From Methanocellales archaeon (GTDB lineage: Archaea; Halobacteriota; UBA148; JAUWXC01), in contig JASEEY010000005.1 of assembly GCA_030018435.1 (NCBI GenBank), positions 38 through 64,037 of the forward strand: 64,000 nucleotides of DNA, written 5' to 3'. The position numbers were made by a program, and so were the translations under genes. Positions 514 through 64,000 of the stretch are shown here, piece by piece (the stretch's first letter is position 1; each line of letters opens with the position of its first letter). The notes beneath the pieces are model-generated. The model was given only the letters and a program-made list of their open reading frames with translations. It searched no databases and was not told the DNA's origin.

Positions 514-681
514 ATGACACCTAACACATATAGAAGAAGCATGACAGCGCCGATTATTATACACGCTACTGCACAGATCTGTCCCACTAAAAAAAGCAGG
601 TAGATTTTAGCTCGCATGTCTGGCTTTTTGAGAAGCTCCTTTAACCACTCGTCACCCAAAGCCATAGTCATCTCCTATGCT

Positions 682-1071: not shown

Positions 1072-1112
1072 AGCTTGCGACTCTCCTTTAAATGATATTC
1101 TTTTACCTATTT

Positions 1113-1760
1113 CTACATTTCTTCCAGCAGTGCCTTGATCCTCTTTCTCCTGAAGAAATCTTCTCTTTCGAGTTCTTCGAGGTGCATCTCAATGTAATTT
1201 TGCGTTGCGCTGAGCTGGGGTATGAAGACATTTTCCAGCGCGTTGACCCTTCTTTTGGTCTTTTCTACCTCATGGGCCAGCATTCTTATTGCGCCATCGT
1301 TTTCTGCCAGTTTGAAGATGTGCTTTAGCACCTCCTCAAAACAACTCGCTGCTTCATCCAACTTTACTGATGTACCTGCATAGCCATATCCTCTTTCTCT
1401 GCCTTCTTGAAGTGGCATCTCCTCTATGATTGGGATATTTGCGCCCATAATATTCTTGGTGTCGACTGCCACATCAGCCATCTCCGCAACTGAATAGGAA
1501 GCGCCCTCCACGCCAGAGCGCCCCATTATCATTTGCGCCTCTATCAAGGATTCATATGCTCTTTTGATTTTTTCCTCCAGCTCTTTTTTGAGCTCTCTGC
1601 GCATCTCTATAAACTTGAAGAACTCCATGACTAAAGCGTCCCTCTTCTCCTCCAACAGGTCATGCCCCTTTTCAGCCAGCACCCGTCTTTTTCTTAATTT
1701 TAAAAGCTCCATCCTTGTCGGTCGGATGCTGGTGATGATCTCCCTAGCCAGTTTTACCAC
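1113..1760 (-). CDS. atpD: A-type ATP synthase subunit D
   Basis: 215 aa, coiled-coil-rich, last gene of the aha operon after subunit B. Confidence 0.85.
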
Positions 1761-3147: not shown

Positions 3148-3150
3148 TGA

Positions 3151-4911
3151 TCATCCCACCATGTCTTTAAACTGAGCCTCCATTTCTTTTTCGATCTCCT
3201 CAAATCTCCTTTGATACTCAGCATCTGGAACGGTGCCCATCCTGGCTAATTTTTCCTTAACTGGCAACCCCCTGATCCTCTCGATTGGAACGTCCTTTTG
3301 AATTGCTTCATACATCAACTCGTTGAATTTCAGCAGGATCTCGAGCATCCTGTATTGTTTCTCTTTAGGACAATAAGTATCCACTTTGTGAAATGCGTTT
3401 TGCATGAGGAATGCTTCTCTAATAGCTTTCGCCCCATCCAGAGCGGCCTGATCGCTTTCTGGAAGAGCGTCTGGCCCAACTAATTGCACGATCTCCTGTA
3501 ATTCGCTCTCTTTCTGAAGCAGGCTCATCGCTTCATTTCTCATTTTCTCCCATTTTGCCCCTACCTCTTTGTGCCACCAATCCTTGACTCCATCAAGGTA
3601 GAGTGAATATGATTGCAACCAGTTGATCGCTGGGAAGTGGCGCTTGTTTGCCAGGTCAGCGTCCAGCGCCCAGAAGACCTTCGTAATCCTGAGCGTATTC
3701 TGCGTCACGGGCTCTGAGAAGTCCCCTCCAGGAGGAGATACCGCCCCGATAACGGAAATGGATCCTATCTTCTCATCCTTTCCGTTTAACATAGCGCGCC
3801 CCGAGCGCTCATAGAAATCCGCCAGTCTGGATGCCAAGTACGCAGGATAACCCTCCTCGCCTGGCATTTCCTCTAACCTGCCGGAAATTTCCCTCATAGC
3901 TTCTGCCCACCTTGACGTGGAGTCGGCCATCAACGCTACATCGTATCCCATGTCCCGGTAATATTCTGCAAGCGTCATTCCTGTATACACGCTTGCATCT
4001 CGTGCTGCGACTGGCATGTTGCTGGTATTGGCGATGAGCATCGTTCTGTTCATCAGAAGTTCGCCCGTTCTTGGGTCCTCCAACACAGGAAATTCCCTGA
4101 GGACGTCTGCCATCTCATTCCCCCTCTCGCCACACCCAACGTAAACGATTACATCCGCATCTGCCCATTTGGCAAGCAGCTGCTGCACCACGGTCTTTCC
4201 ACTTCCAAAGGGACCTGGAATCGCAGCCGTTCCACCCTTTGCTACGGGAAAGAACGTATCGATAACCCTCTGGCCAGTGATTAAGGGAACACTCGGATCC
4301 AGTTTCTTGACATACGGTCTTCCTGTTCGGACAGGCCATTTCTGGAGCATCTGGATTTTCTTGACTCCTTCAGCCGTTTTTATCTTTGCTATGGTTTCTT
4401 CGATGGTGTATTTGCCCTTGGGAGCTATCTCGAGAAGTTTCCCCGTGATGCCCGGCGGAACTAAGATTCTATGCTCGATCGTTTTCGTCTCTTGTACGAC
4501 TCCCAATATGTCGCCAGGACCCATCGTTTCACCTTTTTTGGCAACAGGTGCAAACTCCCATTTCTTGTCTCGCTCCAGTGCAGGTGCTTCAACCCCTCTT
4601 TTTATGTAGTCCCCCATCTGCAATTTGATCAAATCAAGGGGGCGCTGAATGCCATCATATATCTTTCCAAGCAGTCCTGGCCCCAGTTCAACGGAAAGCG
4701 GCATGCCAGTTGAGATGACTTCCTCGCCAGGGGTGACACCACCAGTTTCCTCGTATACCTGTATTGTCGCTACATCTTCATCCAACCCAATTATCTCTCC
4801 GATTAATCGCTCATTTCCTACGCGGACCAACTCGTACATCCTCGAGCCCCTCATGTTTTTGGCAGAAATGACCGGACCGGTGACCCTGGTGATGATGCCT
4901 TTTTCTGTCAT
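3151..4911 (-). CDS. atpA: A-type ATP synthase subunit A (catalytic)
   Basis: 586 aa with P-loop GPFGSGKT and the non-homologous-region insertion typical of A/V-type A subunits. Confidence 0.95.
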
Positions 4912-5234
4912 TTAACCTCACTCCTTTCTACATCGATGCCGACTGCCTTCCGAATCAGTCTGTTTATGGGGTCGATTGCTCTGGAGCCTTCTTTTCCTGG
5001 CACTTCAACTACGATGGGATAAACCTCTTTTCTTCCTTGAACTTTATTCATGAACGGTCTGATGCTCTCTGCCAGACTATCCAATAGCATTATTATGCCT
5101 ATCTCGGGATCGACAAGAAAATGTTTTAACGCCTCTTCCGTTTCTCGGGGGGTTTCTGCTACTCTCATCTTTTTCACTCCTGCGAGCGAGAAACCAAGTG
5201 TCATATTCCTATCTCCTATCACAGCCGCTTTCAT
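4908..5234 (-). CDS. atpF: A-type ATP synthase subunit F
   Basis: 108 aa; position between C and A; ATGA overlap with atpA. Confidence 0.8.
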
Positions 5235-6418
5235 ATGCCTTCCTCACATATCACGATATCCTTCATCTTTTCCAACGACAAATGCTCCCGAATTCCATGG
5301 AGAGCTGCCCTGATATTCCTAACTTCATAATCTTTTGCTACTATGAATCTCATTATCGGTCCTACGTCAAAGACTTTCTTTCTAGCAAACTCGAAGACCG
5401 TATGCAATAAGCGTCTATCGAAAATTGCCTCAAATGCATAGATGCTCCCGCTTTTCTCATATTCAGACATTGCCTTCTTGAGAAGCTCTACGTATCCCGT
5501 ATTCTCCAGCGTTGCGACTATTTCTGCTATATCTCTGGACTCTGTAGCTTGGGTGAGCATCCACGCTGGAAGAGTTCCACCCGGCAACAGGTATTTTCGG
5601 ATCGTCTCAGGTTCGAAACCCTCCTTTTTAGCTCTCATGAGCGCTTTTATATTTGTCACATCAACATACGTGTCAACGAACTTGCTTACAGGCGCAACTA
5701 TCGATGCAGGGATTTTAGGTGCGGACTCGCTAAGTCCTTGAAATACGCACCCATCCAATGCTAACTCGAGAGGCAGCACCGACTTCGTCCTCTCGTAATC
5801 GAGGAGGGCGTTTGAGAGCTCTTTTCCATACGGCATATCCGACAATATCTGAACGATTCTGCCCATATCATCCGCTTCTGCCAATTCTCCTATCAGGTCT
5901 GGAGTGATATTTCCCACCGAAATCATTTTTTTCTTAATCCCATCCGGTGAAAGCCCTGCATTTTTACCCTTTATGGCGACCTTCAGCTGCTCTGCCTCGA
6001 ACTTCATCATGTATGCTTCCAAGAAGGGTTTTATGCACTTCGGCACTCTGGTGATGGTGCTTTTATATGTTTTAAAAAGAGCCAGATTTAGCGCCTTTTC
6101 GATCTCATCAGGATCCTCACCGGTCGCATCGAGTTTATAGCTATCCGCAATTCTCGATATGACCTCGGAGACGTTTTTTGATTCTAAGAGTGGGTGTACG
6201 TTATCAGCAAGAACGTAGGGCACACCAATAGCTCTGACCCTTGCGTTAGGATATGCAAAGCGCATGGCATTTACGATTATTTTTGCTTTGGGAGCGATTA
6301 CCTTCACGACGATGACGGCAAAGACCCCTAGCGCTATCGCGTATAACCATTCGATTGACACTGCGCCTAAAAGTTTGTCAAATTGGTTCAATGAATTGAG
6401 TAAATCGCCAAGCATCAT
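5231..6418 (-). CDS. atpC: A-type ATP synthase subunit C
   Basis: 395 aa; operon position and size. Confidence 0.8.
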   Translation of the reverse strand: MMLGDLLNSLNQFDKLLGAVSIEWLYAIALGVFAVIVVKVIAPKAKIIVNAMRFAYPNARVRAIGVPYVLADNVHPLLESKNVSEVISRIADSYKLDATGEDPDEIEKALNLALFKTYKSTITRVPKCIKPFLEAYMMKFEAEQLKVAIKGKNAGLSPDGIKKKMISVGNITPDLIGELAEADDMGRIVQILSDMPYGKELSNALLDYERTKSVLPLELALDGCVFQGLSESAPKIPASIVAPVSKFVDTYVDVTNIKALMRAKKEGFEPETIRKYLLPGGTLPAWMLTQATESRDIAEIVATLENTGYVELLKKAMSEYEKSGSIYAFEAIFDRRLLHTVFEFARKKVFDVGPIMRFIVAKDYEVRNIRAALHGIREHLSLEKMKDIVICEEGI

Positions 6419-7026
6419 TTCTCACCGTATAAAATCCTCGATATTTCATACCGCAACTCGTTCTTTTGCCGTTCTAATCTGGCCTCGAACGTATTGTTCA
6501 CCATGATATCTCCGGATTTTGATTTGATAGCGACACCACCAATGGTATCGATGTCTTTCTTGCCAACGCTGATTTTTGCGCCTTTCTTGGACATGCTTGA
6601 AATGACCTTTTTAACGACACTCTTGTCCTTCTTATTTGACAGGATGATAACATCGTTTCCTACTAACTTCGCTCCATCGGTCATCAAATTTCTTAGAACG
6701 GTTTCGTATTTTTTAGTAGCAGTCAATTTGCTCAGCGCTTCCCTTGCCTCGGTAAAGCACCGGGAGATAACCTGGTCTTTTGCACCTATGACAGTCCGCA
6801 TAGCATCGATTCTCGCCCCGGATTTGATCCTGTTAACCAGTGCATCGATGTCCTTCCTGCCTCTCTCGAGTATTCTGGAGTGCTCCTGCTCTCCCCTCCT
6901 TCTTGCGTCATCTAAAATCTTCTTTGCCTCTTGCATGGCATCTGCTTTGATGCGCTGCATCTCTGCTTTTGCATCGCTCTCGATCTTGGATATAATTTTA
7001 TCTATGCCATCCATCTGATCACTCAT
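6415..7026 (-). CDS. atpE: A-type ATP synthase subunit E
   Basis: 203 aa, charged coiled-coil N-terminus; operon position. Confidence 0.8.
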   Translation of the reverse strand: MSDQMDGIDKIISKIESDAKAEMQRIKADAMQEAKKILDDARRRGEQEHSRILERGRKDIDALVNRIKSGARIDAMRTVIGAKDQVISRCFTEAREALSKLTATKKYETVLRNLMTDGAKLVGNDVIILSNKKDKSVVKKVISSMSKKGAKISVGKKDIDTIGGVAIKSKSGDIMVNNTFEARLERQKNELRYEISRILYGEK

Positions 7027-7070
7027 GTTATGCGCTATGATGTATAGGATGTTGATTTCTTACTGTTACA

Positions 7071-7298
7071 TCAGATCAATCCCATGCCGACCATCATCAG
7101 GATCGCTATCAGCAAGGCGTAGATGGCCTGCGTTTCAGGCAGTACCGCAAAGACCACGTTCTTACCAAATGCTTCTGGGTTTTCCGCGGTTGCTCCTACT
7201 GCAGCTGATGCTGCCATTCCTTGTGCCAGTGCAGAACCCATGATTGCGATACCACATCCTATGATCGCAATCCCAAGGCCGATTCCAAATTCTACCAT
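7071..7298 (-). CDS. atpK: A-type ATP synthase proteolipid subunit K (c subunit, 2-TM hairpin)
   Basis: 75 aa, Gly/Ala-rich hairpin with a conserved Glu (LPETQAIYALL). Confidence 0.85.
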   Translation of the reverse strand: MVEFGIGLGIAIIGCGIAIMGSALAQGMAASAAVGATAENPEAFGKNVVFAVLPETQAIYALLIAILMMVGMGLI

Positions 7299-7320
7299 TT
7301 TCTACCTCCTTTTGTTTATT

Positions 7321-9285
7321 TTACGTCTTTAGTTTGGTGTATCTTCTAATAGACTTGAATGGGATAAAGTACTTGCCATCACCGCTATAGAACTGATTAA
7401 AGAACTCCACATAATGCAAACGCAGTGAGTGGACGAACGCTCCCAGCGCTTGTAACACGCAGTTGAATATCTGCCCAAATACGAAGATAAATGCCGCCAA
7501 AATGACCATTGCGGGATGGATGCGTGCTACCAACTCGACGAATATGTTTACAGTCATCGCTATGCCGCTGGTGGCTAGCGCTAATGCGAGAATCCTGGCA
7601 TACGATAGCCAGTTGCCAACAAATCCAGTGAAACCGAACACCCCGAGAGGGCCTTCTTTGAGGGCGATCAGGATTACCCCGATAAGAATTCCCACGCCTC
7701 CAACGATCTTTAAAGAAGGCGCTATTGCCGCCCACTTAAAGAAGTCGAGGATCAGTATGGCGGCACATGGCTGGATGATGAACATCGATATCTGCTCACC
7801 TAAAAGATTTCGATACGCTTTCTTTCGTGCATTCTGATAGGCCGCCAAAAGCAGACCAACGTTGAGGTGAACGATTCCTATTACCAAGGCGATGAATAGG
7901 ACTTTTTTTGGCTCCCTCAATGGATCTATCAGCATGAATGGAGAGTTCATACCCCAAAATCTGGGGAATACATCTCCACAGTAGCTCCCTTGTATTGCTC
8001 CTAATACAATGGTCGATGCACCTATTGCCATCAGGATGATGCTCATGTCGTGCATCGACTCGCTTACCTTTCCGGCGCCCCTGTAAAGCAGAAATCCCAC
8101 TAGGACGATAATCAACCCATAGATGGCATCTCCAAGCATCAATCCAAAGAACGCGACGAGGGTTGTACCAAAGAATATCGTGGGGTCTACTTCCCCATAC
8201 TTGGGATGACCGAACATCTTCGTCAACGTTTCGAATGGGCGCAGCCATGAAGGATTAGCGTATTTGATCGGAATCTCCTCTGGCGCCGCCTCTGGCTCTC
8301 TGGATTCGTAAAAAGCGTGTCCATCTGATGCGTTATCACACAGTTTCTTCAACTCATCGACATTTTTGGCAGGAACCCATCCTTCAATAACACTCGTGTT
8401 TACGGTCTTGCCAAACTTAGAGGGCAACTCCATTCTCTCCTTTTCGATTTTCAGTTCTTCTCGAAGGGTCAGAAGTTTCTTGTTCCACTTGTCATGCACG
8501 ATTTTGAGCTCTTTAGATAACTCTTTTTTACGACCCTCCAGCTTTTTTATTTCATCGTCTATTTGCCCGAGAAGTTGGCTTGCCTTGCCTTCTGGATGCT
8601 CAACCTTAATCGCACTGAAAATACGTCCTCTCAGGATATCGTCAAGCTCTTCCCTTGCACTGGCTGGCACTGCGATGACCACCGTATATAACTCACCAAT
8701 TCGACGTTTGAGCAACAGGATGTCCTCAATTGTGAAGAGCGTCTGTACGAACAGCTCATAATCCCCAACCCTGACCGTTCCTGCAACGATGTACAGGTAT
8801 TTTGATTCCCCCAAGTGACGAAGGTCAAAGTCGAATGGCTCCAGCAATTTAAGGGGCACTCGTTGCGCTTGCAGTGTACCAATTTTTTCATCTATACTAG
8901 CCAATTCATCTTGGATGGAAATTGCCCTTCCAGCCTTCTCTAAAACAGACTCGACCTCATCAAATAACTGATTGGGCGCCCTCTCCTCCACAGAAGTTTT
9001 AGCGACGGGCTCAGGAAAGAGGAACTGCTTTAGCAGACTTTCCTTAGACTCTTGAAAACCCTTTAATGCATCCAGCACGCGGCTAACTCGCAACTCATAT
9101 TCTGCACACTTTCCGGTCAAGGGGTGGGATTCTCCTGGTTCCAAGGTTGCGCTGACCTCGCCCTTTGAATCCTGGACATTTGTAATCTCCATGACTCCAG
9201 CCTCATGAAGAGCGGAAATTACCCTTTCCCGATAGTCATCATGAGTAACTATCGTCACATTTTTCATTTCTGCTGGAAAGAACAC
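7321..9285 (-). CDS. atpI: A-type ATP synthase subunit I (a subunit)
   Basis: 654 aa; soluble coiled-coil N-terminal half and polytopic C-terminal half. Confidence 0.9.
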   Translation of the reverse strand: MFFPAEMKNVTIVTHDDYRERVISALHEAGVMEITNVQDSKGEVSATLEPGESHPLTGKCAEYELRVSRVLDALKGFQESKESLLKQFLFPEPVAKTSVEERAPNQLFDEVESVLEKAGRAISIQDELASIDEKIGTLQAQRVPLKLLEPFDFDLRHLGESKYLYIVAGTVRVGDYELFVQTLFTIEDILLLKRRIGELYTVVIAVPASAREELDDILRGRIFSAIKVEHPEGKASQLLGQIDDEIKKLEGRKKELSKELKIVHDKWNKKLLTLREELKIEKERMELPSKFGKTVNTSVIEGWVPAKNVDELKKLCDNASDGHAFYESREPEAAPEEIPIKYANPSWLRPFETLTKMFGHPKYGEVDPTIFFGTTLVAFFGLMLGDAIYGLIIVLVGFLLYRGAGKVSESMHDMSIILMAIGASTIVLGAIQGSYCGDVFPRFWGMNSPFMLIDPLREPKKVLFIALVIGIVHLNVGLLLAAYQNARKKAYRNLLGEQISMFIIQPCAAILILDFFKWAAIAPSLKIVGGVGILIGVILIALKEGPLGVFGFTGFVGNWLSYARILALALATSGIAMTVNIFVELVARIHPAMVILAAFIFVFGQIFNCVLQALGAFVHSLRLHYVEFFNQFYSGDGKYFIPFKSIRRYTKLKT

Positions 9286-9602
9286 TATACCGCCCCTGTT
9301 ATCTTTTCAATGACGTATTTAACCGCATTTGGAATCCTTCCCTCTGCCTTTTTTCTGAGTTTCTCCGCCTCTTCTTTGCCCTGCTGTCTGAGTTTCTCCG
9401 CCTCTTTCGTTGCAGCCTTCTCTGCTTTTTCCTTGTCCTTCTCGATGATCTCTCTCGCCTTTTCTTGGTGTTCCAAAATTAGTTTTTCAGCATCCTCGTA
9501 CGCTTTTTTGATGGTTTCTTCAGCCTCTGCTTGGGCCTTCTCTACCATTTTTAAGGCCTTCACCTCTGCCTTTTTGATTTGCTCAATCTCGCTTTGTACC
9601 AT
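9285..9602 (-). CDS. atpH: A-type ATP synthase subunit H
   Basis: Lys/Glu/Ala-rich about 105 aa. Start placed at the internal ATG (MVQSEIEQIKKAE); the ORF track's longer start at 9659 is less likely. Confidence 0.7.
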   Translation of the reverse strand: MVQSEIEQIKKAEVKALKMVEKAQAEAEETIKKAYEDAEKLILEHQEKAREIIEKDKEKAEKAATKEAEKLRQQGKEEAEKLRKKAEGRIPNAVKYVIEKITGAV

Positions 9603-9667
9603 CTTCGAGCCTCTGGGCTGCTGGTATGCTGATAAATATGTCGGATAAAATATGAACATACGACTTA

Positions 9668-9685
9668 TGATTTAAATTTTTGTTT
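9668..9685 (-). promoter_or_regulatory. Candidate TATA-like element upstream of the aha operon
   Basis: AT-rich tttaaat motif in the intergenic region upstream of atpH. Confidence 0.25.
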
Positions 9686-9735
9686 TTCAACAGCAACGAC
9701 GAGCGGTTCTATTGTACTTGCACTAAAAAATAAAA

Positions 9736-10215
9736 TTAACCCCTAACACGTATATCCGCAATCAATTGCTCGCTTGCGATGTCCACGATTTTTACTGTGG
9801 CGGTCTTTCCATTCTCAGGCAATGGATAATCGGGATTCGCTGCTGCTTTATCCTCGCTCAGATGATATTTTCCGCCCTCTATCCAGATATAGCAGCTTTC
9901 TCCAGCCGTCAGCTTTCCACCCGGGAGCGTTTCTATTACAGTTCCATTGACAATAACCCTTATAGAAGCACCCGTCAGGGTAATTTCCTCTCCACCCTGA
10001 TGCTCCAACTTGATGCAATTGTAATTATGAATCTGTTCCACAGAACCCCTGATGCTTGCCTGCGGTGCAACATTCATCGGCGCCATCCCGAACAGGTATG
10101 CTGCCATGACCGCAGCCAAAATCACCACGACCGCGACCATCAAAATCTCGCCGATTACCGGGGATACTCCCTCGTCCCCTCTAAAACCTTTAGCGAAGTC
10201 CTTCATCCTTTTCAT
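9736..10215 (-). CDS. Archaeal type IV pilin-like protein (DUF1628 type, class III signal peptide)
   Basis: N-terminus FRGDEGVSPVIGEILMVAVVVILAAV is the archaeal prepilin (FlaK/PibD-processed) signature; 159 aa. Confidence 0.7.
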   Translation of the reverse strand: MKRMKDFAKGFRGDEGVSPVIGEILMVAVVVILAAVMAAYLFGMAPMNVAPQASIRGSVEQIHNYNCIKLEHQGGEEITLTGASIRVIVNGTVIETLPGGKLTAGESCYIWIEGGKYHLSEDKAAANPDYPLPENGKTATVKIVDIASEQLIADIRVRG

Positions 10216-21394: not shown

Positions 21395-23239
21395 ATGATG
21401 AAGAATATGACGATACCAAAGACGATTTGGCGGCTTCTAATTATAGCAATACTCATAGCGATTGTATCTGCTTTGGGGATATCGTTATTAACCGTAAGTG
21501 TTTCTGCGGATGGAGGGATGGGTGGACCCGATTGTGTTCACTGTCATGATATCAAAGGAGGAGATGAGGGGCATAAGGGACATGTGGACGTTTCCGCGAT
21601 GAATCAAACGAATTCAATTCACGTCAATTTAAACAGCGGTGTTAGTACGTCCTTAAATCCTGATAATAAGCGTTGCTGGGCATGTCACGGCAATGGCACT
21701 CAACCCTCTGGACACGGGCACCCATCTAATTACAAGAGCCCTTACATCTGCTTGGATTGCCACATTTCTGGTGGCTCTCAGGTTGAGAAGTATAATGCTC
21801 CAATCGTCTTTGAGCACTACAGGAATGGCATGGACATAAAGGCGGCAACAAATGCATCAACAGACGTATTGGCCTGTATATCCTGTCATCAAAACGTGAA
21901 TGAGATGGTCTTATCAAACTCTGACCCTGATTATGGTCACAACATAACTGATGTAGATAAAGACGGAGTCCAAGGTGGCCCTAACTGTACCTATCACTAT
22001 GGCAGAAAGAGAACTGATCTGCAAACTGGTACTCCTCCCTATACCAACTGTTCATACTGCCATCAGAACGCCTCGACGGCATTTCCCTTTGTCAATGCAG
22101 ACCTCAAGAACCTTGAGAATCACACGCCAAGGATTACGAATCCCAGTTGTGTTGATTCCAGATGTCATGATGTTGGCCGGATACACAATTCAACACTGAA
22201 GATGCCGACGACCGTGGATTATACGCTGTGTACTGACTGTCATGGAGGCAAGAGCAGACATAACGATACTCTGGATTGCACAAAATGTCACGGGAATGCC
22301 ACGAACAAGATTCATCCAATCTTATATCTTGCATCTGACGGTACTTTTTCCACTTCGAACGTTTCGGCAGTGAACTGTATATCATGTCATCAGGAAGGAT
22401 ATATGGGCCCGCAAGTTTCTGATCCACTTCACCACAGCGAAGTAAACACAGGACAGCGCTGGGGCGATTATTGGACAGACGATTTATCCGCATGCACATA
22501 CTGTCATGACGATACAAAGCATGACGCAATAGCATTGGGAAGACCGGCAAATTGGAAAGGAGACAACATCGTTGGCTCATCCGTCAACAACAGCTACTGG
22601 TGTGCAGGCTGTCATTATCAGGGATACCAAAGTGGTGCACACAGCTACGAAAATATGGTTAACACATTCAATGGCTCTGGCTTAAACATCCCGCCAGAAA
22701 TCACCAACGGCACGTATGCACCCAACGTAACAGGATTCTATGAACACGTATGCGCTAACTGGTCAGATGCGCTCTGCAAAGAATGTCATGGCAAGTTTGT
22801 CAGCGGTTATAATGTAACCGAACTCATGCACAACGTTTCAGACGGCAGCTGCGGTAACTGCCACTATGACTTTGCATATATGAATGATGCCCGAAATGCG
22901 CCCACGAAATACGTGAACAGCACGATGTTCAATGCGAGCGTGCATGGGCCATCGTCGGGAATAGGGTGCGTAGACTGCCATACTACCTCAAATCATCCTT
23001 ACCCGGAGTATTACTGGAAGTGGTGCGAGTGCTGCCATGCCGTACAATCTAACCCTGTCGATGATACGGACAGGCACAACGTCACATCTGATGTGCGGAA
23101 CAACATGGTTGACGGTGTTTCAGTCCTCAGCATAATCGACTGTAAGACATGCCACAATGCAACCTCTTACGAAAATGCAAAGACCAATTTTGGATTGTGC
23201 AGATGGTGCCATACATATCCTGATAAAACATATGAGTGA
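21395..23239 (+). CDS. Multiheme c-type cytochrome, about 16 CxxCH plus one CX4CH, N-terminal signal anchor
   Basis: Counted CxxCH: CVHCH, CWACH, CLDCH, CISCH, CSYCH, CTDCH, CTKCH, CISCH, CTYCH, CAGCH, CKECH, CGNCH, CVDCH, CECCH, CKTCH, CRWCH, plus CVDSRCH; hydrophobic N-terminus. Confidence 0.85.
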   Translation: MMKNMTIPKTIWRLLIIAILIAIVSALGISLLTVSVSADGGMGGPDCVHCHDIKGGDEGHKGHVDVSAMNQTNSIHVNLNSGVSTSLNPDNKRCWACHGNGTQPSGHGHPSNYKSPYICLDCHISGGSQVEKYNAPIVFEHYRNGMDIKAATNASTDVLACISCHQNVNEMVLSNSDPDYGHNITDVDKDGVQGGPNCTYHYGRKRTDLQTGTPPYTNCSYCHQNASTAFPFVNADLKNLENHTPRITNPSCVDSRCHDVGRIHNSTLKMPTTVDYTLCTDCHGGKSRHNDTLDCTKCHGNATNKIHPILYLASDGTFSTSNVSAVNCISCHQEGYMGPQVSDPLHHSEVNTGQRWGDYWTDDLSACTYCHDDTKHDAIALGRPANWKGDNIVGSSVNNSYWCAGCHYQGYQSGAHSYENMVNTFNGSGLNIPPEITNGTYAPNVTGFYEHVCANWSDALCKECHGKFVSGYNVTELMHNVSDGSCGNCHYDFAYMNDARNAPTKYVNSTMFNASVHGPSSGIGCVDCHTTSNHPYPEYYWKWCECCHAVQSNPVDDTDRHNVTSDVRNNMVDGVSVLSIIDCKTCHNATSYENAKTNFGLCRWCHTYPDKTYE

Positions 23240-23245
23240 TGAAAT

Positions 23246-23668
23246 ATGCTGTCAAGTAGAAGAAAAGCGGTCATAATCGGCATTGCGATGGTGATGGTTG
23301 CCACATCACTGACAGCATATGCCCTATTTTTCGGCGGTCACACGCTCTACACTAGGAAGGATTCTCCAGATTACGGCTCTGCAGAGTTCTGCGTTAAATG
23401 CCATCCGGATGTCGTCGCCACAGCGATGGTCGGCGCGCATCAAAACGCAGGATGCATCTGCCATGGCTATCGTCCAGAAGAGGGCATCAATTTAGCGCAC
23501 AACCTGACCAAGCAGATATACTGCACGAACTGCCATTCGAACTATGACGCAGAAGGAAACATCACCATTCATGAAGGGGTGAGCGGATTAAATCAGTCAG
23601 GGCATTATATTACGAACTATACCGCTACGCTTTACAATAATTCACAACAATTCTTCAGCGGTAGTTAA
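23246..23668 (+). CDS. Small membrane-anchored c-type cytochrome (2-3 heme sites)
   Basis: N-terminal TM; CVKCH, CTNCH and an atypical CICH. Confidence 0.6.
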   Translation: MLSSRRKAVIIGIAMVMVATSLTAYALFFGGHTLYTRKDSPDYGSAEFCVKCHPDVVATAMVGAHQNAGCICHGYRPEEGINLAHNLTKQIYCTNCHSNYDAEGNITIHEGVSGLNQSGHYITNYTATLYNNSQQFFSGS

Positions 23669-23670
23669 CT

Positions 23671-24171
23671 ATGGTCAGAAGAGCGTTAATTTTGTTCACG
23701 GTATTAATTTTACTGGAAGCGTTGGTTCCTATAACGAGCGCCACCGAGATTCAGTGGCATGGATATGAAGAGGGTATGGCGCTTGCCAACTCCAACAATA
23801 TGTCAGTTATGATCGATTTCTATACGGAGTGGTGTGGGTATTGTAGAAAACTGGACGACGAAGTGTACGTGGATGACGAGATCATCGCGTTATCTGAAAA
23901 TTTTGTGAATATCAAGGTCGATTGTAATGCCCGTCCTGATCTACGGCAGAAATATGCTGTAACGGGCTACCCGACGATCGTGTTTTTAAATTCCAATGGA
24001 GACGAGGTTCATAGAGTGTATGGATATGTACCAGCAGATGAGTTCAAAACAGACATGCAAATCGCCTTAAACCTAAAAGATGCAACACCAACACCCACGC
24101 CTGGATTTGAAGCAGTACTTGGCGTAGCGGCGTTGATTAGTTTGGCGTTCAGGAGAAAATCGAATGACTGA
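23671..24171 (+). CDS. Secreted thioredoxin-fold thiol:disulfide oxidoreductase with PGF-CTERM sorting signal
   Basis: Signal peptide; WCGYC active site; Thr/Pro linker then PGF + TM + RRK tail (TPTPTPGFEAVLGVAALISLAFRRK). Confidence 0.75.
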   Translation: MVRRALILFTVLILLEALVPITSATEIQWHGYEEGMALANSNNMSVMIDFYTEWCGYCRKLDDEVYVDDEIIALSENFVNIKVDCNARPDLRQKYAVTGYPTIVFLNSNGDEVHRVYGYVPADEFKTDMQIALNLKDATPTPTPGFEAVLGVAALISLAFRRKSND

Positions 24172-24816
24172 TATATCTCCTTTAATCGCATTTTCTGCCG
24201 GAATCGTGAGCGTACTATCACCGTGCGTGCTCCCTCTTATTCCTGCGGTGATGACATACTCTACAGGAAAAGGACGGCTCAGGCCGTTGGCGATAGTGAT
24301 TGGACTATCGATGGCCTTCACCTCCATGGGCATAGTAGCCTCAGCCTTGGTATGGCATTCATCAGTTATGCACAATACCTGCGAATGGCTGCTGCTCTCA
24401 TAATCGTTTTTCTTGGACTTTACATGTTGTCCGAGTCACTAGAACGGAAATTGTCGATGCTAAAAAGCAGGATACTACCGAGTTTGAATCTTCCTACATC
24501 ATCTTCTAGCGTTTTAGGAGGGTTTATACTCGGACTATCGCTGGGCATCGCATGGGTGCCCTGCATAGGTCCGATACTCGGCACCATCTTAGTATTGGTA
24601 ACAATAAAAGCCAGCCTGTTCTATGGCGCGATGATGCTATTCATTTACTCACTTGGGCTAGGTATTCCGATACTTGTAATCGGCTATGTCACAAAGTCAT
24701 CTATGCAACTCGGCAAATTTGCTCGATACGGTGCAACCATCAAACGTGTTACCGGGGCAGTGCTGATCGTCGTTGGGTTATATATGATGTTACATTTTCT
24801 ACCCATAACGTTTTAA
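24164..24816 (+). pseudogene. ccdA: Cytochrome c biogenesis protein CcdA (DsbD-like), interrupted by a 1-nt frameshift near 24345-24356
   Basis: The N-terminal half (SPCVLPLIPAV) is ORF 24164-24403 and the C-terminal half (WVPCIGPILG) is ORF 24223-24816 in another frame. The junction at ttgg(g)tatggc suggests loss of one G. Confidence 0.7.
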
Positions 24817-58192: not shown

Positions 58193-59289
58193 GCGCAGAA
58201 GCGAAAACGGAAGGAAAGGATGAACTGACAAAGAAAAAGCTGATTGACATCATAGGAGAATTTTACGGTCAGCTACAGAGCGAGAGAGTTCCTTACCTCA
58301 ATCTGCCGACCAGAACCAAGGCTAACATTGAATACAATGATGCGTCAGAGGTGTGGGTTTACGGCGACAGAGAGAGTGTGAGGAGTGCAAAAACCGTCAG
58401 GGGGGCATACCAGTTACTCAAAACCTCATATGTAGTGGATTTTCTGAACGCCCAGTTAGATCAGGCAAAATCTTCCACGTTGAGGGAGTTGTACTATATC
58501 TCCGAGAACTGGGACTTGGCAAAGTTTAGGGAACAGCAGGAAAGCGATAGGTTGATAGAAGACCTGGAAATCGTGAGTGAGCTACAAAGGGAGAACTTCC
58601 ATATCAGGCCGGAGGAGGATGGCGCCTCTGTTTTGGGTCCCATCAAGATCAAAGAGCAGACGAGAAGGGGCACAAAGATCATCCATTGCCAAGATGACGT
58701 TGGCGAAGGGGGGTACCAGATACCCAACAACGTCGATAACCTGGAGTTTTTGGAGCACGATGCAAAAATGATCATAGCGATAGAGACTGGTGGTATGAAG
58801 GATAGGCTGATTGAGAACGGCTTTGACGAAAAGTTTAACACGATCATAGTGCACCTGAAGGGTCAGCCGGCCAGAAGCACAAGGCGATTGCTCAAACGGA
58901 TGAACGAAGAGCTGAAGATACCCGTAGTGGTGTTCACCGATGGGGACCCGTGGTCGTATAGGATATTCGCTTCCGTCGCATATGGGGCGATAAAGAGCGC
59001 CCACCTATCAGAATACATGGCGACTCCTGCAGCACAGTTCATCGGCATTCGCCCCTCGGACATAGTCAACTATGAATTACCAACGGATAAGTTGTCTGAC
59101 CAGGACATAAGAGCTTTGCATTCGATGCTCTCTGATCCAAGATTCGAAAGTGAGTTCTGGCAGAGCGAAATCAATCTGCAACTTGAATTAAACAAGAAGA
59201 GCGAGCAACAGTCGTTAGCGAAGTACGGATTGGATTATGTGACGGATACATATCTGCCAGAACGGTTGAGTGAGATGGGTGTCATCTAA
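58189..59289 (+). CDS. top6A: DNA topoisomerase VI subunit A (Spo11 homolog)
   Basis: 366 aa; Toprim region IAIETGG; ATGA overlap with top6B. Confidence 0.9.
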
Positions 59290-60185
59290 AGTCTCTCGGT
59301 TTTTCTAAACGTGGATACCTCGCGCAGTAGATTGTGCAGTGTAGGGGGCAATTTTCCCTTCAGCATGTAAATGCTCCATGCGTAGTATATGTATGCATAG
59401 ATACCGAGAACGATGTAGAGAGAGCTGAACATGATCTCGCTCGGCAGCAGGATGTCCATGAGGATTGTGACGGTCGGGATTATCAAGATAGGTACAGAGC
59501 CCCAGACCCAGACGCCAACATTATGCCACAGATTATACTCAGTAGTGATGCCAATCCACCATATGAAGAACATCGCCGTCACCACATAGGGCACAAAGCC
59601 CCTGGGATATTGTACCATGAACAGAAATGCTGCGAAGGTGATGTTTATCAGCACGACGATTTTGATGAGAAACAGTATTGGATCAGAAGGATATGTCCCG
59701 CCCCCCAACCTTGAAGACGTTCCTTTGCTAACAGCTCCTCTGCCACCAAACGCGCCAACGCGCTCCTTTAGGTCGTCGATGCTGACGTCGATCGTATTCA
59801 TCTTCTTGGTTGCTTCTTCCAGCCTAGCCTGTACGCTAGCAATCTCCTTGAGTAGCGGCTTCAGCCGCCTGTACACGCCTTCCTCAAATGCGGTGTCAAT
59901 CATGCTCTCGAATAGAAGCGCCTGTTTGACCAAGGAGAAAGCGCCAAGCCCTGCGCCTATTCCAATAAACAAGATGATCGAATTCTTGATGAGCTCCAAC
60001 TTGCTGAATTCATAGGTAAAAACGCGGATGAGTGGGAAAATTGAGATATAAATCAGGAATAACGATGCGCATAGTGCGCAAGCGATGTTCAATTTTTGTA
60101 ATAACGACAAACGCTTCTCTTGCATTGTCACGTGCTCTCTCCACCCGTTATTTAGGGCATTATGTATATCTTTTCTTCGGTGCAT
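59286..60185 (-). CDS. Hypothetical polytopic membrane protein with internal coiled coil
   Basis: ORF hydropathy only. Confidence 0.4.
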
Positions 60186-60981
60186 CTGGATTGCTATGCA
60201 AATAATGATCGGTGCTCACTGAAACAGGGCTAACCTCGGTATGGCTATGACATCCCAGACAAGTCCAGAAGCCCTTGGATATGTACTGTCCATCCGGAGC
60301 GATGTTTCCGCCTGGCTGCCCGAAGGGGTTTCCGTCCATGTACGATGAGCTCTCACTGTTAGCGCTGGTATAAAACGGCACGTGAACATTGTCCTTGCTT
60401 AACAAGTAGCCCACATGTACGACACTTGAAGAAGCATTCGGGAATAGATCTGGATCGTTGTATTGATGCACTGCATTGCCGTGACACCTGTCATCATCAC
60501 AACCCCTCGCGGTCGTGTTCGTGTGCGTTGTGCTCAAACCAAAAAGCGTTGCCTTGTGGCACAGGAAGCACATCTCATCGACGTTGATATATCCATCTCC
60601 ATCGTCGATGCTCACGAGCAACAGTTTTCCATCACTACTTCTCTGCCACTTTTCCTCGGTGGCGTTCCATATCCATACATCGCTGACACCATTACCGTCT
60701 CCATCGTAATTCGTCCATATGGTCGCATTGGTTTTGTCATAATCAATCCCGCCGACCGATAGATAGGTGAGATAGTCGGTGTTGTTTGCAGCCCTCCGAT
60801 GCGCTTCGTAAACATCACCCATGTCAGCGCTCAACTGATCTGCCACATCAATATGGCAGCGCAGGCACCCTACATTGGTTCTGAAGGTATGCTGACCTGC
60901 GAATAAGGAGTAAACTGCCGGTAAAACAAATAAGATGATGGCAATCGCCGCTAGGATTAATAGCACGGTTTTTTGTTTCAC
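60160..60981 (-). CDS. Membrane-anchored c-type cytochrome (3 CxxCH + 1 CX4CH) with two dockerin/EF-hand-like Ca-binding loops
   Basis: CLRCH, CFLCH, CLGCH, CDDDRCH; loops NYDGDGNGVSD and DDGDGYINVDE; N-terminal TM with LFAGQH motif. Confidence 0.7.
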   Translation of the reverse strand: MKQKTVLLILAAIAIILFVLPAVYSLFAGQHTFRTNVGCLRCHIDVADQLSADMGDVYEAHRRAANNTDYLTYLSVGGIDYDKTNATIWTNYDGDGNGVSDVWIWNATEEKWQRSSDGKLLLVSIDDGDGYINVDEMCFLCHKATLFGLSTTHTNTTARGCDDDRCHGNAVHQYNDPDLFPNASSSVVHVGYLLSKDNVHVPFYTSANSESSSYMDGNPFGQPGGNIAPDGQYISKGFWTCLGCHSHTEVSPVSVSTDHYLHSNPDAPKKRYT

Positions 60982-61019
60982 GCTCTCACCGATTATGTTA
61001 ATTTATCTTACTAATTATA

Positions 61020-61754
61020 TTAAACGCTTTTTACCTTAAACTCTTCCAGCGTCATGTAGAGATAAAGCGCAATCATGATGATGAATAGCAGGAGCCCAGA
61101 ACTCTTCACCATCTGCACCAGCGATTTGATGAGTCCATATTCCCCTCCATACTTGGTGACGTAGATTGGATTGGCTGGATCCTCGATGAAGTAATAGCCG
61201 AGATTCTCGATGATGATGGGTTTTTCATTTAGTAGGATTGCCTGACCCTCGATCTCGTTTCTGCGCACAACCCAGGGATCAACTCTGGGATTGGCATCAC
61301 CTTTTGTCCTGTATATCCCATCCTCAATGGAGTAAATCCTGTGCACCACAGGATGCACGACGTATGCAGTCTCAAATTTGATTATGTCGCCCTCCTGGGG
61401 ATTCACGAAAAGGTTCTGCATCAAAACCAAGTCACCCTTGTTGAACGATGGTGCCATACTACCAGAGCCTATAGCAACGAAGTAGATTATGTTCAGGTAA
61501 AGGATGATTCCCAGCAACATCACGATGATGAGCGGAAGCGCAGACGTCACGATGCGCGGCTTTTTGGAAAGTTCCTCATACCTGCGCATGATCATGTTGA
61601 TGCGGTCTTCCCTGCTGCGCTCAATAAATCTATCTGCGATTTTTCCGAGCAGGGCAAATGGGTAGATGGCGCTCCTTCTCTTGATCATATACAGCGTGCA
61701 AAAGATGGCGATTAGAACGCCCATCCAGATGACTAAGCCAATCGTATTGCTCAT
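61020..61754 (-). CDS. Archaeal type I signal peptidase (S26B/Sec11-like)
   Basis: Catalytic-Ser motif AIGSGSMAPS, conserved His/Asp region; two flanking TMs. Confidence 0.75.
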   Translation of the reverse strand: MSNTIGLVIWMGVLIAIFCTLYMIKRRSAIYPFALLGKIADRFIERSREDRINMIMRRYEELSKKPRIVTSALPLIIVMLLGIILYLNIIYFVAIGSGSMAPSFNKGDLVLMQNLFVNPQEGDIIKFETAYVVHPVVHRIYSIEDGIYRTKGDANPRVDPWVVRRNEIEGQAILLNEKPIIIENLGYYFIEDPANPIYVTKYGGEYGLIKSLVQMVKSSGLLLFIIMIALYLYMTLEEFKVKSV

Positions 61755-61868
61755 ACCAACCTCAGATGATCATTGACCCTTCAATAAAAAGGAAGAATAA
61801 ACTAAAAAAAGAAAAAGATGGTGGTCTAAGACCACCATTTTTGTTTTTAGTCAGTAGTCGCAGTTAGC

Positions 61869-62405
61869 TTATGGATAACCGCCACCAGATGTCGTGGTTG
61901 TGTTAGTGCCTTCTGCAGTGAAGTTACCAATAACCCATCCCGTCACTGGATCGTGATCTGCTGTGAACGTCAATGTAGTCGCTCTGATCCATGTGATGTT
62001 CACGCCGGTGTGGGTGTGGCATCCAATGCATGCTTCATTTGCCCCTGTTTCAAGTCCAGATGTCATCGCACCCTGATAGAACTCTGTGTGGGATTCGTTT
62101 GCGTGGAGAAGTTCATCGTCCACCTTGTCATGGCAAGCTACGCACGGCGGTGATATTGAAGCATGTTGGGTTGCATTATCGAAGCCAGCTTTAGGGGTTT
62201 GGTGACAGGCCCCGCACTTAAAATAATAGTGCGGCCCACCCGCAGCCAATTCATCGTATTCTGCACCGTGACACTTGGAACAATCCACATCCTTGGGTCC
62301 TATGAATGCGTGCTGCCCTGCAAACAACGAAAGCACTGATGGCAGTACGAACAGACCGACTGCTAACACTGCTGCTACTAACACAAGCGTTTTGTTTCCT
62401 ACCAT
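61869..62405 (-). CDS. Membrane-anchored tetraheme c-type cytochrome
   Basis: CSKCH, CGACH, CVACH, CIGCH; N-terminal TM plus LFAGQH motif. Confidence 0.75.
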   Translation of the reverse strand: MVGNKTLVLVAAVLAVGLFVLPSVLSLFAGQHAFIGPKDVDCSKCHGAEYDELAAGGPHYYFKCGACHQTPKAGFDNATQHASISPPCVACHDKVDDELLHANESHTEFYQGAMTSGLETGANEACIGCHTHTGVNITWIRATTLTFTADHDPVTGWVIGNFTAEGTNTTTTSGGGYP

Positions 62406-62559
62406 TTTTGTTCTCCCTTTAAATCATTCACAATTCTATACGGACGCCTTGCACTTGGCGTCATGAAATCCTACTTTTAGGATTCCTTGAACGGGATTAT
62501 TTACTTTGTTAATATATAAGTTCTTTGCTATTATTGTTATGCCGTTCAGATGTGATCGT

Positions 62560-63939
62560 TCACCATTTGATGTAAATCTTCGTCCTTACCTCGTACCTGT
62601 TATTGTGGTTGTCTTCGATTAGAATCCTTACATCACGCTCTCCTGTCCTCGCCCTGCTTAGGTCATACTGATCGACCGGTATGTTGGAGCCGTGACAGGA
62701 GTCACACCACCCTTTGCCCATATGCTTATCATGAAGTCTATATGTCGAACTGTAATCTTTATAGCGGTGGCAAATGTAGCACTGCTCTTTTGGATTTACG
62801 TTTAGCACCTCATCCTGATCATGACATCCCACGCAAGTGATCTCATCACCGTGTTTCTCGTGAATTCGCCTGGAGTCTCCATCGTACGATTTGCCGCTGT
62901 GACAGTTATTGCATGATGTTATCGGCGTGATATCAGGCACATCTAAACCATGACACCAATAACAGAAATCACCGGATTCACCAATGTCCTTCTTGGCGTG
63001 CTTCATGTGCACATCCGAGTAAACCTTGTTAGGATCGTATCTCTCTGGCGAGCCATGACAGATGGCACAGTATTCCCCGGAAGGTTCTAGGGTAGTGCTT
63101 GCCGGAATGGCGTGACAATCGCCACACAGCGCTTTATCATCATGCTTCTTGTGCATGCTCGCATACCGGCTTGAGTAATAAGCTGGATCGTACTTGCTCC
63201 CATGACATAGTTGGCAACTGTAATCATGCGGCATGCTTGGATGACATGAGTAACAATCCGCTGTCGTCGGTGTCACGCTTGGATTTTCATGGCATAGTGC
63301 GCAGTTATCATTGTGCGTGACCATCAAGTTCGAGTTGTGGCAGTAGATACAGTCGCCCGTGGTGGATACATGCACCGCTTCTATGTCGCCATGGATCACG
63401 TGACACGCATCACAGGCAGTGTTCTTAGTTGATATGGCATTCTGAACTGTTGGATCCATACTGGCGTGACATGTCGAGCAGTTATAGCCTCTATTCTCAT
63501 GCTCTATCGTTAGGTCATTGTCATGACAACTCAGGCAATCGGGGGTTAAACTTGATTGATGTATCTCTGTCATGTTGTGCACTGCTTCATGACAATTTTC
63601 GCATGTATATACAATGGGGACCCCCGCCGGCGTCCCGTGCGAGCCGTGTGGTACATTTGCAGGGTCATGACAATCAGAACAGATAATGTTTAAGTGACAT
63701 TGATTGCAGGTCTCGTCCATTCCAAAATCTTTTTCTATATGAGGATTATGCACCTGATTCGCAGTGAGATTCGTAGGATCGGTTCCAAGTTGGAAATATC
63801 CACATGGAGTGTATACCGCAGGCCATGTATATTCTGGGGGAGACCAAGTCTGCCATACCGTTTTGGCCTTATATTCGGTATGACAATTCCAACAAACGGT
63901 GGATCGGTCTATAGGTGGCGTCGTAAAAATCGACAACAT
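62560..63939 (-). CDS. Multiheme c-type cytochrome with 18 CxxCH in 459 aa; 5' end probably frameshifted/extends past window end
   Basis: 18 CxxCH counted. No signal peptide on the annotated ATG; an alternative frame just upstream encodes a hydrophobic stretch plus CSQCH. Confidence 0.75.
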   Translation of the reverse strand: MLSIFTTPPIDRSTVCWNCHTEYKAKTVWQTWSPPEYTWPAVYTPCGYFQLGTDPTNLTANQVHNPHIEKDFGMDETCNQCHLNIICSDCHDPANVPHGSHGTPAGVPIVYTCENCHEAVHNMTEIHQSSLTPDCLSCHDNDLTIEHENRGYNCSTCHASMDPTVQNAISTKNTACDACHVIHGDIEAVHVSTTGDCIYCHNSNLMVTHNDNCALCHENPSVTPTTADCYSCHPSMPHDYSCQLCHGSKYDPAYYSSRYASMHKKHDDKALCGDCHAIPASTTLEPSGEYCAICHGSPERYDPNKVYSDVHMKHAKKDIGESGDFCYWCHGLDVPDITPITSCNNCHSGKSYDGDSRRIHEKHGDEITCVGCHDQDEVLNVNPKEQCYICHRYKDYSSTYRLHDKHMGKGWCDSCHGSNIPVDQYDLSRARTGERDVRILIEDNHNNRYEVRTKIYIKW

Positions 63940-64000
63940 GACATTGAGAACAGGTGGTGGTATCGATCGCCAACGTGGAAGGAGATAAAAAGAGCATTAT

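Follow-up and report, generated by a model that had tools for sequence, protein, structure and literature searches.

We analysed a 64,000-nt stretch of the genome of a Methanocellales archaeon (contig JASEEY010000005.1; hereafter the window), one end of which carries multiheme cytochrome genes grouped around a gene for a type I signal peptidase (SPase I). We propose that this locus is a chromosomal cluster for a cytochrome filament of the AvECN type (named after the extracellular cytochrome nanowire, ECN, of Archaeoglobus veneficus), which has a cluster-specific SPase I paralogue and an orphan partner protein with six transmembrane (TM) segments, and in which the peptidase would cleave a leader peculiar to the filament family. 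We give this reading, the leader-cleavage model included, a probability of about 0.62. A sequence-only reading of the same DNA had described five co-oriented minus-strand open reading frames (ORFs) as one module, a dedicated export system for extracellular electron transfer (EET). All five ORFs are present (59286-63939), and four of them form a conserved unit. The fifth, an 18/19-heme gene, falls outside this unit: its Sec leader is ordinary, its frame is shifted, and the corresponding cluster of the closest relative (locus L002 in our numbering) lacks it. Instead of an export system, we read the unit as a processing and assembly module for AvECN-type subunits, export itself presumably being left to Sec.

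Conserved gene order and a discrete peptidase subfamily

Performing a scan of a genome collection seeded with the cytochrome family, we found 186 relatives, and 77 loci were returned. Of the 77 loci, 27 encode a close homologue of the window SPase next to the cytochromes; in 24 of them, this SPase is followed by a homologue of the 299-aa membrane protein. The recurrent order begins with one or more ECN-like, mostly four-heme cytochromes, followed by the SPase, by none to two further cytochromes with the same leader, and by the membrane protein. Loci ordered in this way occur in Methanocellales, in ANME-2c (a group of anaerobic methanotrophic archaea, ANME) and other Methanosarcinales, and in Methanoperedens, GoM-Arc1, ANME-1, Syntrophoarchaeum and Hydrothermarchaeota ('Ca. 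Pyrohabitans'). The Methanocellales locus L002 has the same four genes, and its SPase is 73% identical to that of the window.

Since the cytochrome-seeded scan was biased by its starting point, we repeated the scan from the SPase side in metagenome contigs. Among the 79 loci obtained, 59 showed an ECN-like cytochrome on the same strand, 36 showed the membrane protein, and 70 showed at least one of the two. Directly upstream of the SPase, 41 of 55 cases have a four-heme cytochrome; directly downstream, a variable cytochrome with 2-11 hemes is encoded (51 loci). No homologue of the 19-heme gene was found in these clusters; thus, the conserved unit comprises four genes. The genes for the ECN-linked SPases almost always adjoin those for ECN-like cytochromes and/or for the orphan membrane protein, in at least six archaeal lineages. 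The conservation of gene order in relatives had been set beforehand as a test of the dedicated-SPase idea. The order is kept in many archaeal lineages, well past what chance could produce, and the idea survives.

We also noticed a variant of the arrangement. In five metagenome loci (L129, L141, L146, L148 and L152), the SPase and the membrane protein are adjacent but divergent, with no cytochrome within about 6 kb, which suggests that these two form the tighter unit. In 'Ca. Pyrohabitans jungbluthii' (L055), a 3,294-aa ORF with 69 CXXCH motifs (47-9928) lies directly upstream of a cluster of ECN-like cytochrome, SPase, cytochrome and membrane protein, and the membrane protein is present there in two tandem copies.

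The sequence-only reading had assigned the 244-aa peptidase to the S26 type, and the profile searches agree with it. The protein scores 61 bits with the NCBIfam model TIGR02228 (sigpep_I_arch; cutoff 51.85) and 22.5 bits with the Pfam model Peptidase_S26, slightly under the cutoff of 22.9. Among solved structures, human SEC11C and SEC11A come closest (E 2e-6), and the catalytic motifs align to theirs. The motifs S99-M-x-P102, H138-R139, G152-D153-A154 and D159 are invariant in 17 diverse orthologues and reach at least 90% conservation in 28. The alignments identify the protein as an archaeal/ER-type signal peptidase I (S26B) with intact Ser/His/Asp motifs, for which cleavage activity is predicted. 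Hydropathy alone places its TM segments at about 1-26, 65-101 and 208-239. The ECN-linked SPases share a further TM helix at the N-terminus, then a cytoplasmic linker, and, after the catalytic domain, a conserved extension with a TM helix at the C-terminus; in the window protein, the positive charge of the linker suggests an outward-facing catalytic domain.

We judged the separation of this subfamily by reciprocal score distributions of hidden Markov models (HMMs) rather than by a tree. With the subfamily HMM, its 97 members score 197-359 bits, whereas the 113 generic SPases returned from a search of 5.8 billion proteins score at most 89 bits. By this measure, the ECN-linked SPases are a discrete subfamily with three predicted TM segments. 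In comparison, the SPase I of 'Ca. Serpentinarchaeum aceticum' Met12, also of the Methanocellales, has 172 aa, belongs to arCOG01739 and is encoded between cdc6 and the gene for the small subunit of DNA polymerase II (DPB2). SPases of this type form a single-copy core cluster of about 172-196 aa in 21 genomes of Methanocellales, Methanosarcinales, Syntrophoarchaeum and Methanoperedens (PMC11176372). Indirectly, this points to the cdc6-DPB2 SPase as the housekeeping type, to which the window SPase does not belong. The conserved gene order and the discrete SPase subfamily together lend strong support to the earlier suggestion that the window SPase is a cargo-linked paralogue and not a chance neighbour.

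Filament-type cytochromes and their common leader

Counting heme motifs confirmed the numbers of the earlier reading: the 459-aa ORF has 18 CXXCH, the 178-aa ORF has 4, and the 273-aa ORF has 3 and, in addition, a CX4CH. The 178-aa tetraheme protein matched chain A of PDB entry 8E5G with an E value of 6.5e-13 when searched as a single sequence, the N-terminal VLPS..SLFxGQH segment being included in the match. This entry is the cytochrome filament of A. veneficus (PMC12954529). A family profile built from 21 members matched 8e5g_A over its full length (E 1.9e-44, 154.6 bits), aligning positions 4-185 of the profile to residues 5-236 of the chain. The runner-up PDB matches were generic multiheme proteins with E values of 6e-7 or weaker. 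The family conserves the His of all four CXXCH motifs together with four distal His residues (H32, ~H58, H81 and H106). Three of the latter (H32, H81 and H106) never vary, every aligned sequence has a His near position 58, and the alignment with AvECN shows His at the corresponding positions. This is the pattern expected of four bis-His hemes. By profile homology, the 178-aa protein is a full-length member of the AvECN/MmcX family. MmcX is the AvECN-like protein of Met12, where its gene is among the two most highly expressed; its model deviates from 8E5G by a root mean square deviation of 3.4 A, and a peptidase is not mentioned in that study (Suzuki et al. 2024, PMC11176372).

We also checked the expression signals around the tetraheme gene. 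A terminator scan finds a hairpin directly 3' of its stop codon, with a 9-bp GC-rich stem followed by the T-run CTTTTTCTTTTTTT; the RNA fold has an energy of -20.2 kcal/mol (z -4.1). A TATA-like element, TTATATAT, was seen by eye ~110 nt upstream of the start codon. From the tetraheme gene downstream, the genes are tightly packed, with intergenic gaps of 114, 38 and -26 nt. The hairpin may cause partial termination, giving more of the major subunit than of the accessory proteins. The TATA-like element of its own, the 3' hairpin and the packed downstream genes would fit a highly expressed major subunit with lower read-through into accessory genes. We presume that the tetraheme protein is the major polymerising subunit of an extracellular filament.

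The leader of these proteins is unusually well defined. We aligned 147 unique ECN-like cytochromes relative to an invariant His (position 0, 100%). The most constant positions before it are Q-1 (98%), G-2 (97%), F-4 (95%), [S/A/T]-6 (99%) and P-10 (96%); K-27, A-20, A-17, G-15, L-5, [S/A/G]-3, [W/F]+2 and Y+3 are further conserved positions. Among 63 four-heme ECN members, the leader columns have a conservation of 0.59 compared with 0.46 in the mature domain, or 0.40 when the Cys/His columns are left out, and the nonapeptide LFxGQHxWY is the best-conserved part of these proteins (0.75). By these values, the ECN leader is conserved in a way unlike ordinary Sec signal peptides.

Across the ECN family, the sole site that fits the -3/-1 rule lies after [S/A/T]-6, with a Pro at -5; the motif reads [T/A/S/V]-x-[S/A/T] and is followed by L. 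The sequence-only reading had pointed to the LFAGQH region for SPase I cleavage, and the rule indeed predicts cleavage there, between S26 and L27 of the tetraheme protein (mature protein beginning LFAGQH) and between S25 and L26 of the 273-aa cytochrome. If the predicted site is right, the invariant His would stand sixth in the mature protein and would count among its four distal heme ligands. In known cytochrome filaments, 0, 1 or 3 His residues ligate hemes of adjacent subunits, according to a preprint. We considered a type IV pilin-like (class III) signal for the ECN N-terminus and rejected it, as the hydrophobic stretch comes before the conserved site and not after it.

The second cytochrome, of 273 aa, combines its three CXXCH motifs with an invariant CX4CH site, CDDDRCH, behind the same ECN-type leader. 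Compared with the tetraheme cytochrome of the window, it gives an E value of 3e-12, mainly through the leader. Its orthologues are found in L002, in L079 and in the Methanoperedens loci L007 and L011. The Methanoperedens nitroreducens orthologues (L007 8028-8801; L011 8025-8798) are 42-44% identical and lie near ECN-like genes, with no SPase within 10 kb. Judging by its alignment, this cytochrome defines a subfamily marked by the invariant CX4CH site. The earlier reading had credited it with Ca-binding loops, a weak assignment. Before the second CXXCH, 5 of 7 relatives keep an EF-hand-like loop (in L007, for instance, it reads DRNNNGIIDGAE); the EF-hand_1 score of 16.8 bits is under the cutoff of 25.4, and the DGDGNGVSD loop is an insertion specific to the window protein and missing from its closest relatives.

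In Met12, mmcX is followed by a gene for a 320-aa paralogue with 7-8 hemes, whose leader reads GLFTGMH and not LFxGQH, and both genes are flanked by PIN-domain genes (PMC11176372). The dedicated peptidase may have been lost in Met12 together with this divergence of the leader.

The orphan membrane protein, a proposed mechanism and competing readings

The product of the last gene of the cluster had been called a polytopic membrane protein, and we agree: it has ~6 predicted TM helices, with a coiled-coil loop of roughly 75 aa between TM2 and TM3. Searches of Pfam, NCBIfam and PDB gave no match, and a profile of 23 orthologues against PDB, like a Pfam scan of all 23, returned only coiled-coil noise. 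Heme-handling (CcmC/F-like), archaeosortase-like and protease-like identities are unsupported in these profile and Pfam scans. The family is small, with just 74 representatives in a full HMMER pass over 1.84 billion representative proteins. P110, W209, W210 and Y267 are invariant among the orthologues and E216 is nearly so; the invariant WW pair and further Trp residues map to TM4-TM5 or close by, outside the large loop. Proteins that handle heme have conserved His residues as ligands. We found no conserved His in the family alignment, which argues against a heme-handling role.

Among relatives of the membrane protein (P0174, P0175, P0181 and P0197), some begin with a long TPR-like or acidic domain and lack a signal peptide. 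On this basis, the N-terminus is predicted to be cytoplasmic, and by alternation so is the coiled-coil loop. Soluble parts on the cytoplasmic side speak for a partner acting within the membrane, in substrate holding, presentation or scaffolding, rather than for an extracellular anchor. Thus, the protein looks like an in-membrane partner of the SPase. One relative, of 1,483 aa, is fused to an extracellular domain at its N-terminus and to a tail of long Lys/Glu-rich repeats.

We propose the following mechanism. The ECN precursors would be exported by Sec and receive heme. Their conserved leader helix would tether them to the membrane until the dedicated SPase cuts after [S/A/T], that is, after S26 in the tetraheme protein. 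The mature N-terminus freed by the cut would contribute its invariant His as a distal heme ligand, one of four. In the filament, the tetraheme protein would be the major polymerising subunit, and the variable cytochrome, whose gene lies downstream of that for the SPase, would serve as a minor subunit, as the base or as an adaptor. The six-TM protein would work in the membrane with the SPase, in substrate holding, presentation or assembly.

A bolder version, which we regard as possible but doubtful, takes the SPase paralogue and the six-TM protein as a previously unrecognised minimal assembly machine. Here, the six-TM protein would recognise the ECN leader helix and keep the heme-loaded subunits in the membrane. 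Cleavage would license polymerisation, as the freed His of LFxGQH completes heme ligation, possibly across the subunit interface. The variable downstream cytochrome would then be the base of the filament or its adaptor to the electron-transfer chain of the cell.

Several observations weigh against a dedicated SPase in a filament cluster. In 50 of the 77 ECN-like genome loci, there is no SPase within about 10 kb. Neither partner was seen in 9 of the 79 SPase-seeded metagenome loci, most of them contigs with short flanks, and some metagenome loci pair the SPase with the membrane protein but show no cytochrome within 6 kb. In the complete Met12 genome, a single SPase I is annotated, and the highly expressed mmcX has no SPase next to it (PMC11176372). 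A generic SPase HMM detected no second SPase type in the 64 kb of the window or in ~1.5 Mb of retrieved loci; of the genome studied here, 64 kb and the ~2.7 kb of a contig extending beyond the window (L001) were readable. The predicted structures are too poor for structural claims. AlphaFold2 modelled the membrane protein from only 7 close sequences with a predicted local distance difference test score (pLDDT) of 43.7, and the tetraheme protein from 21 sequences with 55.5; a Foldseek search of the latter model against PDB returned only noise (E of 5 or more). Fold-level confirmation of the AvECN similarity therefore failed, and the family assignment rests on sequence and profile homology. The many ECN loci that lack a local SPase, Met12 among them, mean that the dedicated enzyme is common but not obligatory, or that it acts in trans or was missed by annotation.

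A rival reading, proposed by Chadwick et al. (PMC9012536), is that the pair serves multiheme cytochromes at large. In such a general maturation module, the SPase would process most or all secreted multiheme cytochromes and the membrane protein would handle heme in the manner of CcmC or CcmF, with no specificity for ECN proteins. The cytochrome-free loci fit it, and so do the large multiheme proteins that are often nearby (the 19-heme gene here, the 69-heme ORF in L055) and the Trp-rich segment with its invariant WW in the window membrane protein. The pair also lies next to CcmF2/ANME MHC-B in ANME-2a and ANME-2b as well as in ANME-3, where heme handling has been proposed from conserved Trp residues (PMC9012536). 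However, the membrane protein has no conserved His, and a cytoplasmic location is predicted for its termini and large loop. The leader of the neighbouring 19-heme cytochrome is ordinary and not of the ECN type, while the conserved leader is specific to the ECN family, whose four-heme members occupy the position directly upstream of the SPase so regularly (41 of 55 loci). We consider general maturation unlikely.

Another reading keeps the filament cargo but gives the SPase homologue a function beyond simple leader removal, either the regulated release of a tethered pool or a part in polymerisation or anchoring, with the N-terminal helix mainly a membrane anchor. A leader that is more conserved than the mature domain, with small residues at A-20, A-17 and G-15, would suit such a function, as would the extra N-terminal TM helix and the conserved C-terminal extension of the SPase subfamily. 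Protease-dependent assembly of the OmcZ filament in Geobacter, as reported, would be a parallel. Against this stand the standard Ser/His catalytic motifs of SPase I, the conserved canonical -3/-1 site with Pro at -5, and the lack of any sign of transpeptidation chemistry. Cytochrome nanowires have, moreover, been described as carrying Sec-dependent signal sequences (PMC12337348). Altogether, we hold this reading highly unlikely.

That the window peptidase is simply the housekeeping SPase I, placed among cytochromes by chance, agrees with the single SPase of the window and with its passing the generic archaeal SPase I model, but is barely credible given a gene order kept across orders and even phyla from both search directions, a discrete subfamily with extra TM helices and a C-terminal extension, the different core SPase (about 172-196 aa, single copy, at cdc6-DPB2) of the relatives, and the absence of the pair from a cytochrome-less ANME-1 subclade (PMC9012536).

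Neighbouring genes and known systems

Table 1. Positions of the cluster genes and associated features in the window
Feature	Positions	Strand	Description
Polytopic membrane protein	59286-60185	-	299 aa from first ATG (281 aa in NCBI)
Second cytochrome	60160-60981	-	273 aa; 3 CXXCH + CX4CH; ECN-type leader
Signal peptidase I paralogue	61020-61754	-	244 aa
Terminator-like hairpin	61805-61838	-	Terminator scan and RNA fold
Tetraheme c-type cytochrome, AvECN/MmcX family	61869-62405	-	178 aa; 4 CXXCH
Tetraheme N-terminal leader, residues 1-26	62328-62405	-	Predicted cleavage between S26 and L27
TATA-box-like element TTATATAT	62512-62519	-	Read from the sequence by eye
18-CXXCH ORF	62560-63939	-	459 aa; gene spans 62560-64000 and continues past the window end
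T5 run, +1 frameshift	63925-63929	-	Joins the signal-peptide/first-heme frame to the 18-heme frame

The 459-aa ORF upstream of the cluster does contain 18 CXXCH motifs (one per 25.5 aa), as the earlier description of an 18-heme cytochrome had it, but it is the frameshifted 3' part of a 19-heme gene. The ORF has no signal peptide, and another frame, open to the end of the window, holds a CSQCH motif. The separately assembled Logan contig L001 continues past the window end and is 99.85% identical to the window over 4,037 bp (4 mismatches, 2 gaps). In L001, the upstream frame opens with the Sec leader MHKKTITLALTFFALLIIMLFLSPSTLA, followed by IDTTTCSQCH, that is, with an ordinary leader and the 19th heme site; the 5' end of the gene lies about 51 nt past the window end. 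Removing one T from the T5 run gives a continuous 19-heme protein of 497 aa. The +1 frameshift is present in both assemblies (L001 2670-2852) and could be a homopolymer error, a pseudogene mutation or a programmed shift. We found no homologue of the 19-heme protein in L002 or in the other genome loci, save weak matches at the level of heme motifs. We rejected the gene as a member of the conserved module on account of its ordinary leader, its frameshift and the absence of homologues from the relatives' clusters, and we infer that it encodes a neighbouring EET cytochrome for processing by an ordinary SPase. Further along L001, past the window end, lies a gene for a hexaheme cytochrome (74-664) with a Thr/Pro-rich linker and a PGF-CTERM archaeosortase signal. 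A gene for a radical-SAM protein and a pair of small orphan ORFs come next, just upstream of the 19-heme gene.

Elsewhere in the window lie housekeeping genes of the chromosome, for A-type ATPase, aromatic amino-acid synthesis, RuBisCO and PEP carboxylase, along with further ORFs that we take to be Rad50, Mre11 and topoisomerase VI. A first cytochrome module lies at 21395-24816 on the plus strand. It comprises a cytochrome of 614 aa and 16 CXXCH motifs, a two-heme ORF of 140 aa, a thioredoxin that bears a PGF-CTERM sorting signal (23671-24171) and a membrane protein of the CcdA/DsbD type (24223-24816). The last two look like the thiol-reduction branch of cytochrome c maturation, placed beside a large EET cytochrome.

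A 2026 review lists the possible nanowires of Methanoperedenaceae as unresolved. The locus described here, with roughly 100 relatives, offers a compact candidate set of a tetraheme subunit, a dedicated SPase I, a variable second cytochrome and an orphan six-TM protein. These four genes could be co-expressed for testing the maturation and assembly of archaeal cytochrome nanowires. Alongside the cytochromes, the SPase and the six-TM protein are possible genomic markers of ECN-type EET in ANME, in alkane-oxidising archaea and in non-methanogenic Methanocellales.

A bacterial analogy is the SipW-TasA/TapA system of Bacillus subtilis, in which the operon for the secreted fibre subunits also encodes the SPase I paralogue, of the ER/archaeal type, that processes them. 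The logic is the same, with a major subunit, a minor subunit and a dedicated SPase. However, the window SPase is not a SipW orthologue (31.8 bits with the SipW equivalog NF046067, below the cutoff of 190), its cargo is multiheme and not of the TasA fold, it has an extra six-TM partner, and the envelope is archaeal. In Geobacter, Gu and colleagues are said to have found in 2023 that the subtilisin-like protease OzpA removes a C-terminal part of OmcZ before the nanowire polymerises. There, as proposed here, a protease would be needed before a cytochrome polymerises, but at the window locus the enzyme is an SPase I and its presumed target is an N-terminal leader.

In archaea, the earlier reading knew of no described example of a dedicated SPase among secreted cytochromes, and at least two related cases had in fact been published. 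The haloarchaeal Tafi pilus locus encodes its own signal peptidase, TafD, and an accessory protein, TafG, proposed to assist TafD (PMC12337348). Compared by description, it resembles our locus as an archaeal filament locus with its own SPase and an accessory protein. It differs in that its cargo consists mostly of Tat-dependent pilins and that TafG is a DUF5305 protein, a Pfam match not seen in the window membrane protein.

Chadwick et al. described an SPase and a conserved orphan membrane protein beside cytochromes in ANME, Syntrophoarchaeum, Geoglobus and Ferroglobus, read them as a general cytochrome maturation pair with heme handling, and found both absent from the cytochrome-less ANME-1 subclade (2022, PLoS Biol, PMC9012536). 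Their pair and ours are alike in joining an SPase and an orphan integral membrane protein, encoded together beside multiheme cytochromes, in cytochrome-rich archaea only. Theirs was tied to CcmF2/ANME MHC-B before AvECN was known, whereas ours goes with AvECN-type subunits and a family-specific leader, in Methanocellales. Our membrane protein is probably their '8x TMH' protein, matched by description and not by sequence, because the partner and the restricted taxa are the same and because the genome of L059 (ANME-1) shares the isolate label CONS3730B06UFb1 with one in their domain tables. The descriptions diverge in topology, as '8x TMH' has 8 TM helices and a Trp-rich periplasmic loop and the window protein has ~6 TM helices and a coiled-coil loop predicted to be cytoplasmic. 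In the literature searched, which did not include the primary AvECN description, no paper links the pair to AvECN-type subunits or to Methanocellales.

The filament proteins themselves can be compared in the same way. AvECN and the window tetraheme protein have in common the four CXXCH motifs, the four distal His residues and the N-terminal VLPS..SLFxGQH segment, but AvECN has 262 aa with long insertions that the 178-aa window protein lacks, and its filament was solved, whereas the window protein is known from sequence alone. MmcX of Met12 comes from the same order, Methanocellales, and differs in that no SPase adjoins mmcX in Met12, while one is present at the window locus. In summary, a cargo-dedicated SPase beside archaeal cytochromes is well supported by synteny and is not new in kind. 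What we add is the link to nanowire subunits, the family-specific leader with its predicted cleavage site, and the re-reading of the membrane partner, by which the earlier ANME observation is refined, the peptidase/membrane-protein pair being tied not to cytochromes at large but to the AvECN family.

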